Below, piece after piece: positions 41,239 through 45,677 of a DNA stretch of 64,000 bases (positions within the stretch are counted from its first letter, which is position 1; the number at the start of each line of letters is the position of its first letter). Made by a program: the position numbers and the translations under genes. The stretch covers positions 45,639-109,638 of the forward strand of contig CAZJUY010000006.1 in the NCBI GenBank assembly GCA_964549315.1, given 5' to 3'. Under the pieces are notes generated by a model. That model was given only the letters and a program-made list of their open reading frames with translations. It was not told where the DNA came from and did no database searches. This stretch comes from an uncultured Chitinophaga sp. Lineage in GTDB: Bacteria; Bacteroidota; Bacteroidia; 2-12-FULL-35-15.

Positions 41239-41973
41239 ATGTTTTATTATAAAAAATGGGCCATTGTAGTACCAATGGCAAACGAAGAAGAAGATTTTAA
41301 ACCATTTATAGAAATGGTGAATTTTGTGATTAATGAACTAAACCCAGGTAATGTTTATTTTATAATCGACAAAGCATCTAAGGATAGAACATTGGAGTTG
41401 TGTCAGGAATTATCAGCAAAAGACCCGCGTTATGTAACAGTTTGGGCGCCCGATAATAAAAATGTGGTAGATGCTTATGTTAAAGGATTACGTGTTGCTT
41501 ATGAAGCAGGACACGAGATTATTATTGAAATGGATGCAGGCTTATCGCATGACCCAAGAGCAATACCAATGTTTTTACGAGTATTGAACGAAGGAAATGA
41601 ATGTGCATTTGGAAGTAGATTTATTAATGGTGGTTCTATGGGCGATTCTCCTTTTAAACGCAGAATGCTTTCTAAAACGGGGACAGTATTAGCAAATATG
41701 CTTTTAGGAACAAAATTAAAAGACATGACATCTGGGTACCAAGGTTTTCATAGAGATGTAGTAGAAAAGATTATTAATCATGATTTTAAATCCAAAGCAC
41801 ATTTTTATCAAACAGAGTTAAGGTATTTATTACGTAAACGAAGAATGTTTGAAGTGCCAATTCATTATCAAGCACCATCTCCTCGTGTATCAAAAAATGC
41901 AATAAAAAATGCATATCAAACATTGTTTTATTATTTCTTTCAACGATTGATAGGAAATAAACCAACATTGTAG
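41239..41973 (+). CDS. Family-2 glycosyltransferase (polyprenol-phosphate sugar synthase-like)
   Basis: 'WAIVVPMANEEEDFKPF', 'YFIIDKASKDRT' and 'EMDAGLSHDP', the DxD/QxxD region of DPM1-like GT2 enzymes. Confidence 0.8.
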   Translation: MFYYKKWAIVVPMANEEEDFKPFIEMVNFVINELNPGNVYFIIDKASKDRTLELCQELSAKDPRYVTVWAPDNKNVVDAYVKGLRVAYEAGHEIIIEMDAGLSHDPRAIPMFLRVLNEGNECAFGSRFINGGSMGDSPFKRRMLSKTGTVLANMLLGTKLKDMTSGYQGFHRDVVEKIINHDFKSKAHFYQTELRYLLRKRRMFEVPIHYQAPSPRVSKNAIKNAYQTLFYYFFQRLIGNKPTL

Positions 41974-41983
41974 CACCTTGTCT

Positions 41984-42200
41984 TTTCGAACGAAACGTAG
42001 TGTAGAGAGAAAAGAAATCTTACAAATAATGAGATTCCTCTCTGCGGTCGGAATGACACATAAAAACTGTCATTTCGAACGGAATGAAATGAAGTGAGAA
42101 ATCTTACAAATAATGAGATTTCTCCTTACAGTCGAAATGACAAATAGGAATTGTCATTTCGAACGGAATAGAATGGAGTGAGAAATCTCTTAAAGTAGAC
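41984..42200. repeat. Array of ~85-bp REP-like repeat units (2.5 copies), each containing two hairpins, upstream of the GIY-YIG gene
   Basis: Unit 'TTTCGAACGGAATGAAATGAAGTGAGAAATCTTACAAATAATGAGATTTCTCC..GTCGGAATGACA....TGTCA'. Hairpin 1 is 'gagaaatct(N11)agatttctc'. Hairpin 2 is 'cggaatgaca(N9)tgtcatttcg'. Confidence 0.85.
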
Positions 42201-42210
42201 TTTTATTAAA

Positions 42211-42522
42211 ATGAACTACAATTATTTTATTTATATACTTACAAATAAGAATAAAACCGTACTATATATTGGAGTTACAAACAATTTGGAAAGAAGACTT
42301 TTAGGACACTCAAATATTTTCAAAAATAAGTTTAAATTTACGACTCGTTATAATTGTGTCCATTTGATTTATTATGAGAGGTTTTCAGATATTAATCAAG
42401 CAATAAAACGAGAAACAGAAATTAAAAAGTGGAGAAGGGAAAAGAAAGAAAATTTAATTAAATCAGTCAACCCTAAATGGGAATTTCTGAATGATGAAAT
42501 TAAAGAACGTTTTTTTGAATGA
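42211..42522 (+). CDS. GIY-YIG nuclease family protein (COG2827-type small URI-domain endonuclease)
   Basis: 103 aa. 'YFIYILTNKNKTVLYIGVTNNLERRLLGH' carries the GIY, YIG, Arg and His motifs. 'NQAIKRETEIKKWRREKKENLI' carries the catalytic Glu. Confidence 0.85.
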   Translation: MNYNYFIYILTNKNKTVLYIGVTNNLERRLLGHSNIFKNKFKFTTRYNCVHLIYYERFSDINQAIKRETEIKKWRREKKENLIKSVNPKWEFLNDEIKERFFE

Positions 42523-42525
42523 TGG

Positions 42526-42730
42526 GGTTTCTTCTCGCAATCAGAATGACAAACACGAAGCTGTCATTTCGAGTGAAGTGAAGCGAAACGAGAAATCTTT
42601 TAAATAATGAGATTTCTCCCTATGGGCGGAATGACAAATAGGGGATGTCATTTCGAACGAAATGCAATGAAGTGAGAAATCTTTTAAATAGTAAGATTCC
42701 TCCCAATGGTCGGAATGACAGTATAAATTT
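42526..42730. repeat. Second block (about 2.5 copies) of the same ~85-bp double-hairpin repeat, downstream of the GIY-YIG gene
   Basis: '...cagaatgacaaacacgaagctgtcatttcgagtgaagtgaagcgaaacgagaaatcttttaaataatgagatttctccctatgggcggaatgacaaataggggatgtcatttcgaacg...'. The six-frame ORF 42541..42906 (-) is just a translation of these repeats. Confidence 0.85.
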
Positions 42731-42793
42731 GAAAAAAACATAACGGTATAAATACTAATAAAAACTGCGCCTTTGCGCCTCAGCGGTAAAAAT

Positions 42794-43795
42794 ATGAAAT
42801 CACTAATTATAACATCTATTGCAAACGATAAACATCCAATCTTAAAACAATTTGCAAAAGAATGCAAAGAGCATAATACTCCTTTTATTGTAATAGGGGA
42901 TACCAAATCACCAGCTGAATTTGATCTTGAAGGCTGCGATTTTTGGAGTGTAGAACGTCAATTAACTTTGCCCTTTGAATTAGCAAAAATTACTCCTACA
43001 CGTCACTACTCAAGAAAAAACTTGGGTTATTTATTAGCCATAAAAAATGGCGCAACAGAGTTAGTTGAAACCGATGACGATAATATCCCACGCAAAGAAT
43101 TTTGGGAAGCAAAATCGCGTGAAGTAAAAAGTTACAAGTTTGAAAATACAGGTTGGGTAAATGTGTATCATTATTTTACCAAGCAAATGATTTGGCCTAG
43201 AGGATTTCCATTAGAAGAGTTGCAAAAAAAACAAATAGATACAGCTACTTTAAAATACGAAGCAATAAATTGCCCGATACAGCAAGGATTGGCTGATGAA
43301 AACCCAGATGTGGATGCCGTTTACCGATTAACTTATCCTTTGCCACTAAATTTTGAAATAAAAACACAATTGGCATTAGGAAAAAATGCATGGAGCCCAT
43401 TCAATAGCCAAAATACATATTGGTTTAAAGAAGCATTTGCATTAATGTATTTGCCATCTTATTGTAGTTTTAGGATGACAGATATTTGGCGCAGTTATGT
43501 AGCACAACGTATTGCTTGGGAATGTGGCTGGAGTGTTTTATATCATGAACCAACCGTTTGGCAAGAACGTAATGAACATAATTTGATGAAAGATTTTGAA
43601 GATGAGATTTCTGGCTACACTAATAATTTTAATATTTGTAAAGAATTACAAAGTCTTGAACTAAAAAAAGGACAAGAAAATATTTTTGATAATTTAATTA
43701 CCTGCTATCAAAAACTAATTGACATAAATGTAATTGGCAAAGAGGAGATGGTTTTGCTAAAAACTTGGGTTGGGGATTTAGGGAAATTGATTTAA
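42794..43795 (+). CDS. Hypothetical protein, possibly a nucleotide-sugar (GT-A-like) glycosyltransferase
   Basis: The likely start is 'MKSLIITSIANDKHP' at 42794; the tracked 42773 ATG lies inside a small dyad. Acidic 'ELVETDDDNIP' is DxD-like. The call rests on the locus context of glycosylation genes. Confidence 0.4.
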   Translation: MKSLIITSIANDKHPILKQFAKECKEHNTPFIVIGDTKSPAEFDLEGCDFWSVERQLTLPFELAKITPTRHYSRKNLGYLLAIKNGATELVETDDDNIPRKEFWEAKSREVKSYKFENTGWVNVYHYFTKQMIWPRGFPLEELQKKQIDTATLKYEAINCPIQQGLADENPDVDAVYRLTYPLPLNFEIKTQLALGKNAWSPFNSQNTYWFKEAFALMYLPSYCSFRMTDIWRSYVAQRIAWECGWSVLYHEPTVWQERNEHNLMKDFEDEISGYTNNFNICKELQSLELKKGQENIFDNLITCYQKLIDINVIGKEEMVLLKTWVGDLGKLI

Positions 43796-43805
43796 AATTG
43801 GACTT

Positions 43806-45677
43806 ATGTTTTCAAAAATTAACAAGAACAATAAAATTTCTCTTCTTGCAGTTTTTGTTATCTCTTTTATAATATTATACTTTCATTATACACTTCCTAG
43901 GTATAAATATTACGGATTTACAAAAGAATTTGAGTGGGATATTCTATCTTACTACTTGTATTTGCCTTTGACTTTTATTAAGCATGATTATGGGATAAGC
44001 GATTACGCTTATATTCAAACTATTTTTGAGCAGTATCATTTTTCTCCTTCTTTTTACCAAGCCAATCAGTTGCATAATGGTAATTGGGTAATGGTTTATA
44101 CATCTGGCATGGCAATTTTACAATTCCCCTTTTTTTGTATTGGACATCTTTGGGCTAACTTGGGAGGATATCCAATGGATGGATTTTCGTTCCCATATCA
44201 ATTTTGTGTTTCGACAGGGAATATGTTTTATATCATTTCTGGCATTTTTTTGATGAGAAAAATTTTATTGAACTATTTTTCTGACGGTATTGTATCGGTT
44301 ACTCTTATATTATTATTATTAGGTACAAATTATTTTCGAGAAGCGACAGACTATAATATGGGGCCTCACGCAATTCTTTTTGCATTATACTGTCTGCTGT
44401 TATTAAATACAATAAAATGGCATAAAACCCCGAAAATTAAATATTCTATACTTGTTGGAATTTCTGTAGGGTTTCTGACCTTAATTCGCCCAACAGAATT
44501 AATTTGTATTCTTATTCCAATTTTTTGGAATGTGAGTAGTCTGCAAACATTAAAAAATAAAATCAGTATTGTTAAACAAAATTGGAAACATTTACTAATA
44601 CTGGTATTTACGGTGCTCCTCGTTGGTTTGCCTCAAATAATTTATTGGAAATATTTAACCGGGTCATGGGTATATAATAGCTACGATAACCAAATATCTT
44701 TTGATATCTCCGAATCTCATTTATTTAAAATTTTATTTAGCTTTAGAAAAGGCTGGTTTGTATATTCTCCATTGATTGTTATTGCATTAATAGGAATCTA
44801 TTTTTTAGGTAGAAATAAATTAATGGAAGCGAGAAGCTCAATTGTTTTATTTATTATCTGCAATGTTTTTATTCTTTCTCATGTGCCTATTTGGTGGAAT
44901 GCTGGTAGTTTTGGGCAAAGATTTATGGTGCAATCTTATGCATTATTGGCACTTCCAATGGCTTGTTTTATAGAGATAATAATCTTTCAAAAAAAAATAT
45001 TTTACAAAATTCTATTAATTCCAATTTTTATCTTTCTTGTATTTTTGAATTTGTTTCAAACATGGCAATTTGTTAGATGGATTATTCCTGGAGATGGAAT
45101 TACAAAAGAATTTTATTTTCGGTCTTTTTTAAAAACTGCTGTTACAGAAGAAGATAGGTCTTATTTGGAATTACAAAGAACTTTTGATAATACTCAAAAA
45201 TTTGACGAGAATAATAAAGCCTATAAGTCAAAAATCCTTGCTTTTTATGATATTGAAAATTTCAAAAAAAATAATTTTGTTGATTCTGCAGGTCATGCTT
45301 TAAGTGGTAAAAAATCATTTATGATGACCAGTGAATATTGTTACTCTCCAGGTGTTGACACTTCATTCTTCGCAATAACCGCTAAGGATCATGCATGGAT
45401 AAAATTTAGTGTTTCTTTGTATTCTTTACGTGAATTAGAAGAGAAGGATGCAGTTATAGTGATGCACTTTTCTCATAAAGAAAAATTATATAGTTATATG
45501 GAATTCCCTTTTAAACAAGATCAAATTGCTGCCAAGAAATGGAATATTATAACAGCATATTATTTAACACCATCAGTTTTTTCAGAAGATGATAGGTTGA
45601 AAGCCTATGTTTGGTACAAAGGAAAAGATACATTATATGTTGATAATATCAAAATTGAGGCATTTGAAAAGAAATAA
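43806..45677 (+). CDS. Polytopic membrane protein, GT-C-superfamily-like, with a C-terminal extracytoplasmic beta-rich domain
   Basis: At least 10 TM segments in the N-terminal 420 aa. The C-terminal soluble domain ends 'LKAYVWYKGKDTLYVDNIKIEAFEKK'. The N-terminus 'MFSKINK' resembles that of the convergent neighbour. Confidence 0.6.
   Translation: MFSKINKNNKISLLAVFVISFIILYFHYTLPRYKYYGFTKEFEWDILSYYLYLPLTFIKHDYGISDYAYIQTIFEQYHFSPSFYQANQLHNGNWVMVYTSGMAILQFPFFCIGHLWANLGGYPMDGFSFPYQFCVSTGNMFYIISGIFLMRKILLNYFSDGIVSVTLILLLLGTNYFREATDYNMGPHAILFALYCLLLLNTIKWHKTPKIKYSILVGISVGFLTLIRPTELICILIPIFWNVSSLQTLKNKISIVKQNWKHLLILVFTVLLVGLPQIIYWKYLTGSWVYNSYDNQISFDISESHLFKILFSFRKGWFVYSPLIVIALIGIYFLGRNKLMEARSSIVLFIICNVFILSHVPIWWNAGSFGQRFMVQSYALLALPMACFIEIIIFQKKIFYKILLIPIFIFLVFLNLFQTWQFVRWIIPGDGITKEFYFRSFLKTAVTEEDRSYLELQRTFDNTQKFDENNKAYKSKILAFYDIENFKKNNFVDSAGHALSGKKSFMMTSEYCYSPGVDTSFFAITAKDHAWIKFSVSLYSLRELEEKDAVIVMHFSHKEKLYSYMEFPFKQDQIAAKKWNIITAYYLTPSVFSEDDRLKAYVWYKGKDTLYVDNIKIEAFEKK

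Follow-up and report, generated by a model that had tools for sequence, protein, structure and literature searches.

The 64,000-nucleotide stretch of contig CAZJUY010000006.1 (GenBank assembly GCA_964549315.1, positions 45,639 to 109,638 of the forward strand) of an uncultured Chitinophaga sp., hereafter the window, contains a gene for a small GIY-YIG nuclease that is set in an array of five repeat units (41979-42720). This locus is very probably an SRM-ssn-SRM cassette, in which a nuclease gene of the Ssn family is enclosed by Ssn-related motifs (SRM), and represents a Bacteroidota member of the system with a repeat variant of its own. The feature is real; as the system was already described in 2025, it is no new kind of element. 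A candidate interpretation as an unreported REPIN-like system was rejected once the literature revealed the Ssn family (PMC11893778). The ssn gene is flanked on both sides, by a repeat module at 42152-42187 on the left and an inverted one at 42527-42551 on the right, with four further pairs of inverted modules (doublets) around it, and the module shows the features known from experiments to be critical, namely, a self-complementary stem that is preceded by GTC and followed by C.

The Ssn family was defined by Chenal et al. (2025, Nat Commun 16:2388; PMC11893778) and corresponds to the CDD entry cd10448 (GIY-YIG_unchar_3). No site-specific endonuclease that cuts single-stranded DNA (ssDNA) only was known before the Ssn nucleases. 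SsnA of Neisseria meningitidis, a protein of 94 aa, binds the 28-nt NTS hairpin as ssDNA only and in one orientation, cuts a few nucleotides upstream of GTC in the variable flank, and is inactive on double-stranded DNA (dsDNA) and RNA (PMC11893778). The C directly after the palindrome matters most for binding and the three nucleotides that precede the palindrome matter most for cleavage; the Y6A, Y17A and E64A variants keep binding and lose cleavage (PMC11893778). SRM were found near 71% of the homologues and on both sides in 42%, and in Neisseria the system lowers the integration of NTS-bearing transforming DNA (PMC11893778). The NTS-ssnA-NTS layout was called insertion sequence (IS)-like and was likened to REP/BIME repeats and the RAYT transposases. 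The study included 29 curated genomes, and its main text never mentions Bacteroidota (PMC11893778).

The nuclease and the repeat array

The ssn gene (42211..42522, plus strand) was assigned to the SsnA-like Ssn family from the open reading frame (ORF), its Pfam match and its homology to SsnA. The 103-aa product matches the Pfam family GIY-YIG over residues 4-81 (E 7e-17) and contains no second domain, GIY-YIG and T5orf172 being the only Pfam families matched, which bears out the GIY-YIG ORF amid repeats noticed in a preliminary description of the window. More than 1,100 homologues were retrieved, and the named ones among the 120 best belong nearly all to Bacteroidota, one record labelled Inquilinus excepted. 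In an alignment of 25 homologues, Tyr8, Tyr19, Gly21, Arg29, His33 and Glu68 are invariant, and these include the conserved Arg, His and Glu on whose presence the preliminary description had made its interpretation depend. BLASTP aligns the protein with the 94-aa N. gonorrhoeae orthologue of SsnA at 38% identity (E 5e-18), placing Y8, Y19 and E68 opposite SsnA Y6, Y17 and E64, the residues tested by mutagenesis. A C-terminal NPxWxxL motif is common to the window protein and SsnA. None of the PADLOC defence-system families was matched by the window protein.

The nearest solved structures are the UPF0213 proteins BH0048 and EF2693, and a classification of 2006 put stand-alone GIY-YIG domains in the Slx1 cluster, with predicted roles in repair. 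The gene could on these grounds encode a housekeeping UPF0213/YhbQ (Slx1-like) repair nuclease whose position in a locally duplicated intergenic region is fortuitous, and the minimal fold of about 100 aa is indeed the same (PDB 1zg2, 1ywl; similarity E 7e-8). However, the profile of the window family scores BH0048 at 35.2 bits and EF2693 at 33.4 bits, compared with 83.6 bits for Neisseria SsnA and 75-139 bits for the repeat-flanked Ssn homologues, and the UPF0213 proteins lack the C-terminal NPxW motif. Because the score is far higher for SsnA, the window protein, as judged from the profile, belongs with Ssn and not with YhbQ proper; the label 'COG2827-type' given to it in the preliminary description was loose. 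Moreover, the repeats constitute a family found beside homologues in dozens of genomes, rather than a local duplication, and we know of no repeat association of UPF0213/YhbQ proteins. A housekeeping repair nuclease is considered very improbable.

The ORF lies exactly at the centre of one repeat unit, as would be expected of a free-standing homing endonuclease similar to I-TevI that cuts dsDNA inside a pre-existing repeat and is copied in by double-strand-break repair. The I-TevI and Seg enzymes have the same GIY-YIG core and are likewise encoded within sequence related to their presumed target, and weak matches of the window protein to TIGR01453 (20.7 bits) and to phrog_7168 'homing endonuclease' (21.4 bits) involve the group I intron endonuclease N-terminal motif. 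However, the TIGR01453 match spans residues 6-42 only and is well below the cut-off of 56.05, the protein is a bare catalytic domain without a DNA-binding module, the profile groups it with SsnA, and this characterised relative, an ssDNA-only enzyme, never cuts dsDNA (PMC11893778). A homing endonuclease is hardly to be expected at this locus.

The five units of about 84 bp form a repeat family with copies starting at 41979, 42068, 42152, 42562 and 42646. Tandem Repeats Finder detected arrays with a period of 84 at 42013-42188 (2.1 copies, 85% matches) and 42562-42720 (1.9 copies, 82%), and the units in these arrays are mutually 79-85% identical. Each unit is a doublet composed of two modules of 26-42 nt in inverted orientation, and the five doublets follow each other head to tail in a 2+1+2 arrangement around the ssn gene. 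The left module reads TGTC-ATTTC-GA-(AC...GT)-GA-GAAAT-C on the top strand and is followed by an 11-nt centre, and the right module corresponds to a shorter form in reverse complement (TGTC-ATTTC-GA-CT-GTA-AG-GA-GAAAT-C on the bottom strand). The preliminary description had counted 2.5 copies on either side of the ORF, which is right in the register that it used; five full inverted doublets, with the ORF centring the third, are the more natural register.

Doublet 1 (41979..42058) comprises a degenerate plus-strand module with a 5-nt insertion (41979-42020), the centre TACAAATAATG and an inverted module with the 5-mer ATTCC (42033-42058). Doublet 2 (42068..42142) consists of a plus-strand module of the form TGTC-ATTTC-GA..GA-GAAAT-C (42068-42103), the 11-nt centre and an inverted module with a GTA triloop (42117-42142). 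Doublet 3 has, in place of the short centre, a 23-nt leader, the GIY-YIG ORF and a 4-nt trailer; its left module (42152..42187, plus strand) ends 23 nt before the ATG, and its degenerate, inverted right module (42527..42551, minus strand) starts 4 nt past the stop codon (GGTTTCTTCTCGCAATCAGAATGACA). Doublet 4 (42562..42636) contains a plus-strand module (42562-42597) and an inverted module with one mismatch in the 5-mer pair (42610-42636), and doublet 5 (42646..42720) a plus-strand module (42646-42681) and an inverted module with the 5-mer ATTCC (42695-42720). The back-to-back modules of successive doublets are separated by spacers of 9-10 nt (42059..42067, 9 nt; 42143-42151; 42552-42561; and 42637-42645).

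Two dyads are enriched in the array. The first, GAATGACA N9 TGTCATTTCG, occurs at three sites, on both strands each (six matches), versus 0.10 expected from shuffles, and the second, GAGAAATCT N11 AGATTTCTC, at four sites versus 0.02 expected. Within the 64-kb window both are confined to the ssn locus.

A minus-strand ORF of 121 aa (42541-42906) crosses doublets 4 and 5 and the 5' end of the next plus-strand gene, and its product matches no Pfam family. This is consistent with an artefact, as the preliminary description had proposed, and the ORF is an example of the spurious ORFs that arise from such repeats. For annotation, the combination of gene and repeats explains a common class of genes labelled 'GIY-YIG nuclease family protein' and also the spurious ORFs that overlie the repeats.

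The array is situated between unremarkable same-strand genes, and as RNA the repeat regions fold better than shuffles (z -5.3 upstream and z -2.2 downstream of the gene). The repeats might then act as RNA, as some REP elements do, in the form of terminators, attenuators or mRNA-stabilising hairpins, the nuclease gene being merely adjacent; a structured RNA or terminator array had also been suggested in the preliminary description. However, no terminator-like sites were detected and promoter-like sites were at chance level. The whole window yielded no Rfam match at gathering score, with matches at chance level only when E values up to 10 were allowed for 41900-42800. Both module orientations are present in every doublet, so that no transcript orientation is favoured, the repeat accompanies the gene into many unrelated contexts, and SsnA neither binds nor cuts RNA (PMC11893778). 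The suggestion of an RNA array found no support, and a role of the repeats as RNA is most unlikely. The GA...GA and GCGNAGC loops had been considered as marks of RNA motifs, an idea that was dropped given the ssDNA biochemistry of the Ssn family.

Association of gene and repeats and the selected hairpin

The three closest homologues on long contigs are found in three gene contexts, and in each the gene has the repeats, with unchanged orientation, on either side. Locus L001 encodes an 84% identical protein and is syntenic with the window (GT2-gene-STELLO), the 73% identical protein of L002 is encoded behind CoA-transferase genes, and the gene for the 72% identical protein of L004 belongs to a different glycosyltransferase cluster. 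Intact inverted modules hold the position of the doublet-3 right module in these three loci and in most of the protein-chosen loci described below.

For an unbiased estimate, 80 metagenome loci were picked by protein similarity alone (44-61% identity) and scanned with a strict grammar consisting of TGTC, a 5-mer, GA, 3-50 nt, GA, the reverse complement of the 5-mer and C. At least one module was present within 400 nt of the gene in 57 of the 80 loci, and on both sides of it in 44. Usually, a plus-strand module precedes the gene by 40-130 nt and an inverted module follows it at a distance of 4-60 nt. The density of modules is 3.4 per kb near the gene versus 0.08 per kb beyond 700 nt, and among 533 modules, back-to-back spacers of 5-11 nt constitute the main class.

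More distant homologues (32-55% identity) were identified by tblastn on plasmid-labelled replicons of Spirosoma, Planktothrix, Sinorhizobium, Shinella, Azospirillum, Neisseria, Novosphingobium and Aeromonas. Homologues of seven other genera, from four phyla or classes, are flanked by modules of the same plan with lineage-specific stems, for example, TGTCATTCTGAGTGAAACGAAGAATCTC in Planktothrix, CGTCATCCCCGCGAAGGCGGGGATCC in Azospirillum and CGTCATTCCCGCGCAGGCGGGAATCC in Aeromonas. The flank of the N. gonorrhoeae ssnA orthologue, CGTCATTCCCGCGCAGGCGGGAATCT, contains the classical dRS3/NTS repeat, and hairpin repeats of their own flank the homologues in Sinorhizobium and Shinella; those of Sinorhizobium may be RIME. 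The prediction that the unit would be found near other GIY-YIG genes has therefore been confirmed in many genomes.

Two loci with Ssn homologues display further peculiarities. Downstream of the Ssn homologue in L136 (2387-2650), seven short modules of the form TGTCATTCCGAAGCG(N)AGCGAGGAATCT are arranged as direct tandem copies with a 39-nt period, and their loop is the GCGNAGC mini-hairpin sequence. The Planktothrix ssn cassette (L207, 1-3252) is located in a defence island, between a gene of an MmeI-type restriction-modification system and the DISARM gene drmA.

The 5-mer of the module varies among loci (ATTTC, ATTCT, ATTCC, ATCCC, ATCTC, ATCCT, ATGCT, ACTTC and others), and its partner in the module stays complementary. 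Covariation was analysed in 120 listed loci obtained with a pattern that fixes the left module only, in order to avoid circularity, and the right modules were located by fixed anchors alone (AG-N5-TC...TC-N5-GACA). The 5-mer pair is perfectly complementary in 73 of 88 right modules, versus 39.7 expected with shuffled partners. The 5-mer is unlike that of the left module in 35 right modules, of which 21 have nevertheless retained perfect self-complementarity. Among the 19 distinct sequences, compensatory changes were observed in four of the five pairs, and cells with both sides changed numbered 17 versus 5.6 in shuffles, a value reached by none of 500 shuffles. Sliding the partner by one column halved the pairing. 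Because the 5-mer and its complement covary inside the module, selection appears to act on the hairpin within each module, TGTC-a...a'-C, which makes the module the probable functional hairpin. Such a per-module hairpin agrees with the experimentally defined recognition grammar of SsnA. The two dyads of the preliminary description, presented above, do exist; they pair neighbouring inverted modules and are a by-product of the doublet geometry.

Several observations weigh against the assignment of the locus to the SRM-ssn-SRM type. The published SRM motif, HGTCWYN(0-2)YYVSBRHN(0-5)WNVSBRGN(0-2)RNCYNB (PMC11893778), has no match on either strand of the window and was found near the gene in only one of the 80 protein-chosen loci. 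Because this motif misses the repeat, the assignment of the repeats depends on a relaxed grammar of our own definition; read in this way, the window repeat is a variant of the grammar that lies outside the published search pattern. All of the modules in the 64-kb window are located at the single ssn locus, which makes dispersed copies in this genome hypothetical, and degenerate modules occur on the left of doublet 1 and on the right of doublet 3, which bears the gene. Hairpins of single modules, modelled as DNA, are weak in this AT-rich genome (-0.5 to -5 kcal/mol) and no better than shuffles. Doublet 2 folded as ssDNA reaches -15.6 kcal/mol (z -5.4), and given this strong predicted fold at the level of the doublet, the fold in vivo may pair neighbouring modules. 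Finally, the enzymes with known ssDNA-only cleavage are those of N. meningitidis, N. elongata, N. wadsworthii and Wolbachia, none of them from Bacteroidota (PMC11893778). The published motif does not detect the GA-bracketed grammar with a 5-bp stem, and motif-based surveys probably under-count the Ssn family for this reason in Bacteroidota, Cyanobacteria and many other phyla.

Proposed function and relation to known systems

In an SRM-ssn-SRM cassette of this kind, each module, with its TGTC, 5-mer, GA...GA, complementary 5-mer and C, would fold into a small hairpin in ssDNA. By analogy with the Neisseria enzyme, the window protein would bind this hairpin in one orientation only, with the C after the stem serving binding and the GTC before it serving cleavage, and would be inactive on dsDNA and RNA; ssDNA-specific cleavage by the window protein is what we infer from this relationship. 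The spacers of 9-10 nt would correspond, as suggested by the cut site of SsnA, to the positions at which ssDNA is cut on each strand. The inverted doublets would place such sites on both strands, the gene filling the centre of one doublet. The activity may serve to restrict or trim ssDNA that is incoming or exposed, and/or to spread the cassette's own repeats. Each pair of enzyme and repeat is a potential new specificity for ssDNA tools.

The window locus resembles the published Ssn/SsnA system in its single-domain GIY-YIG protein of about 95-100 aa with conserved catalytic Tyr, Tyr and Glu and 38% identity to the Neisseria enzyme, in the oriented hairpin repeats that flank the gene in inverted orientation and also occur without it, and in the repeat grammar (H)GTC, palindrome and C. 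It differs in the stem, which is 5 bp long and GA...GA-bracketed, with a variable inner loop, in contrast to the 8-bp GC-rich stem of NTS, in the regular inverted doublets forming an 84-bp tandem array, and in its Bacteroidota host. What is added to the description of the Ssn family is modest, namely, the GA-bracketed module (Bacteroidota/Cyanobacteria type), the doublet arrays, the covariation within each module, the phyletic spread and one case of presence/absence. The repeats of the Neisseria dRS3/NIME and rhizobial RIME elements have the same type of module grammar and array organisation, with different stem and loop sequences.

The comparison made in the preliminary description, with REP/BIME-like repeats accompanied by a GIY-YIG protein instead of a RAYT and possibly mobile or formerly mobile, is the same as that drawn by the authors of the Ssn paper (PMC11893778). 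The common features are an oriented hairpin repeat that is short and starts with a conserved tetranucleotide at its 5' end, inverted doublets, mosaic arrays, a nuclease gene between two inverted repeats, recognition of a single strand and the absence of target-site duplication, and they constitute a functional analogy only. In contrast to the REP/REPIN-RAYT systems, the enzyme is a hydrolytic GIY-YIG nuclease and not an HUH/Y1 (IS200/IS605-like) transposase, with no covalent intermediate and no obvious strand transfer, and the REP sequence, with its GTAG, is unrelated to the repeat in the window, which lacks this tetranucleotide.

Solo doublets, stability and mobility

The exact pattern TGTCATTTCGA-N12-36-GAGAAATCT was found at no fewer than 120 loci in contigs representing one genome per species. 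The matches listed include Bacteroidota, Clostridia, Planctomycetota, Chloroflexota, Desulfobacterota, Acidobacteriota, Nitrospirota, Verrucomicrobia, Patescibacteria, Actinomycetota, Spirochaetia, Omnitrophota, Hydrogenedentota and others, and the phyla with exact module sequences among them number more than 15. In a hidden Markov model (HMM) search of the DNA fetched around the 120 listed loci (up to 8 kb per locus), an Ssn-like ORF was detected in five, all of them Bacteroidota. A sixth, in L040 on a Thermodesulfobacteriota contig, begins directly past the module and ends at the contig edge. The HMM scan of these loci revealed no divergent GIY-YIG ORFs beside solo doublets beyond the five Bacteroidota cases and L040. 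Since only 5-6 of the 120 listed loci carry an Ssn-like ORF, most doublets are solo. The doublet centres in these loci are 1 to 137 nt long. The exact module pattern is also present in 37 predicted viral contigs (IMG/VR, L218-L254), either in phage DNA or in the host flanks of prophages. Some of these contigs, such as L231 and L243, contain 10-15 modules in doublets, and a fragment of an Ssn-like ORF was observed in L233 only.

At the locus itself, the window and L001 are orthologous, with identities of 96% for the GT2 gene, 90% for the STELLO-like gene, 84% for Ssn and 74% for the upstream gene. The nuclease diverges faster than its GT2 and STELLO-like neighbours. Because the flanking genes and the position of ssn match those in L001, the cassette has been inherited in place. 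The number of doublets differs, being 2+1+2 in the window and 2+1+~4 in L001. The gene content changes after the STELLO-like gene, where the window encodes a 623-aa PMT_2-like membrane protein and L001 an unrelated 817-aa GH16/Por_Secre_tail protein (window 42773-45677 versus L001 5780-9279). The change of gene content noted at this point of the glycosylation island in the preliminary description is thus real, but relative to L001 it occurs one gene downstream of the cassette.

A different situation was observed in Azospirillum lipoferum 4B, where a doublet-ssn-doublet block of about 520 bp lies between the stop codon of sufB and the start codon of sufC (L211, 1370-1990). A. ramasamyi and Azospirillum sp. 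B510, in which the flanks are 95-97% identical, lack the block. This polymorphism could reflect either insertion or deletion. In Shinella sp. PSBB067, an ssn gene is likewise located between sufB and sufC.

The few bases at either end of a short centre are similar to the beginning of the leader and to the close of the ORF, respectively, in that genome's gene-bearing unit (window, L001, L002 and L004). Because the centre ends match the leader and tail of the gene-bearing unit, the gene-less doublets may be copies of it that have undergone internal deletion, a suggestion made from short matches that carry no statistics.

These data raise the question of whether the doublet-ssn-doublet block is an autonomous mobile element of a new mechanistic class, with the gene-less doublets as its progeny, mobilised in trans in the manner of miniature inverted-repeat transposable elements (MITEs) or REPINs. 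Such an element would account for the occurrence of the cassette in unrelated gene contexts, for the presence/absence polymorphism in the Azospirillum suf operon, for the large excess of solo over gene-bearing doublets, for the match between the short-centre ends and the leader and tail of the gene-bearing unit, and for the exact modules in more than 15 phyla among the matches listed and in the 37 viral contigs. An IS-like architecture was also raised, as a hypothesis only, by the authors of the Ssn paper (PMC11893778).

However, although the cassette has inverted ends similar to those of IS elements and MITEs, it contains no transposase domain, and no target-site duplication beyond chance was seen: 44 of 68 doublets showed a duplication of 0 nt, 17 of 1 nt and 6 of 2 nt. 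The window locus is stable relative to L001, with ssn in the same place between flanking genes that are 90-96% identical, the divergence between the units of the array argues against recent copies, and the Azospirillum case is possibly a deletion. Moreover, the enzyme is a hydrolytic GIY-YIG nuclease, for which, to our knowledge, no strand-transfer chemistry has been described. An autonomous mobile element is therefore regarded as possible, though rather unlikely. The more specific proposal of an element that is driven by a hydrolytic ssDNA-specific GIY-YIG nuclease, moves between phyla, possibly via viruses, and lands preferentially in hairpin tips is considered unlikely. For the SRM-ssn-SRM cassettes in general, the doublet arrays, the Azospirillum polymorphism and the spread of identical modules bear on the question of whether they perform a domesticated host function or act as selfish, REP-like seeders of repeats.

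About 10% of the solo doublets are nested in an additional, non-conserved inverted repeat of the flanks (at least 12 of 14 nt), versus 0.4% in controls, which suggests insertion into hairpin tips or the formation of composite palindromes. Examples are L117, L012, L073 and L091 of Desulfobacterota, as well as L024, L048, L086 and L098. The flank GTGYCTGAACGAAAAC is common to several of the nested cases from Desulfobacterota and resembles another repeat family.

On plasmid p1 of Planktothrix agardhii (L207, ~1800-1880 and 1960-2040), and also in L031, L036, L044 and L123, partial tandem copies of the module occur as a 'stutter' of three or more. They consist of the outer ~22 nt of the module (TGTC, the 5-mer, GA and about 12 nt), directly adjoin a full module, with a mirror image at the opposite end of the doublet. 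Such copies could have been left behind by repeated rounds of cleavage and template switching at the hairpin.

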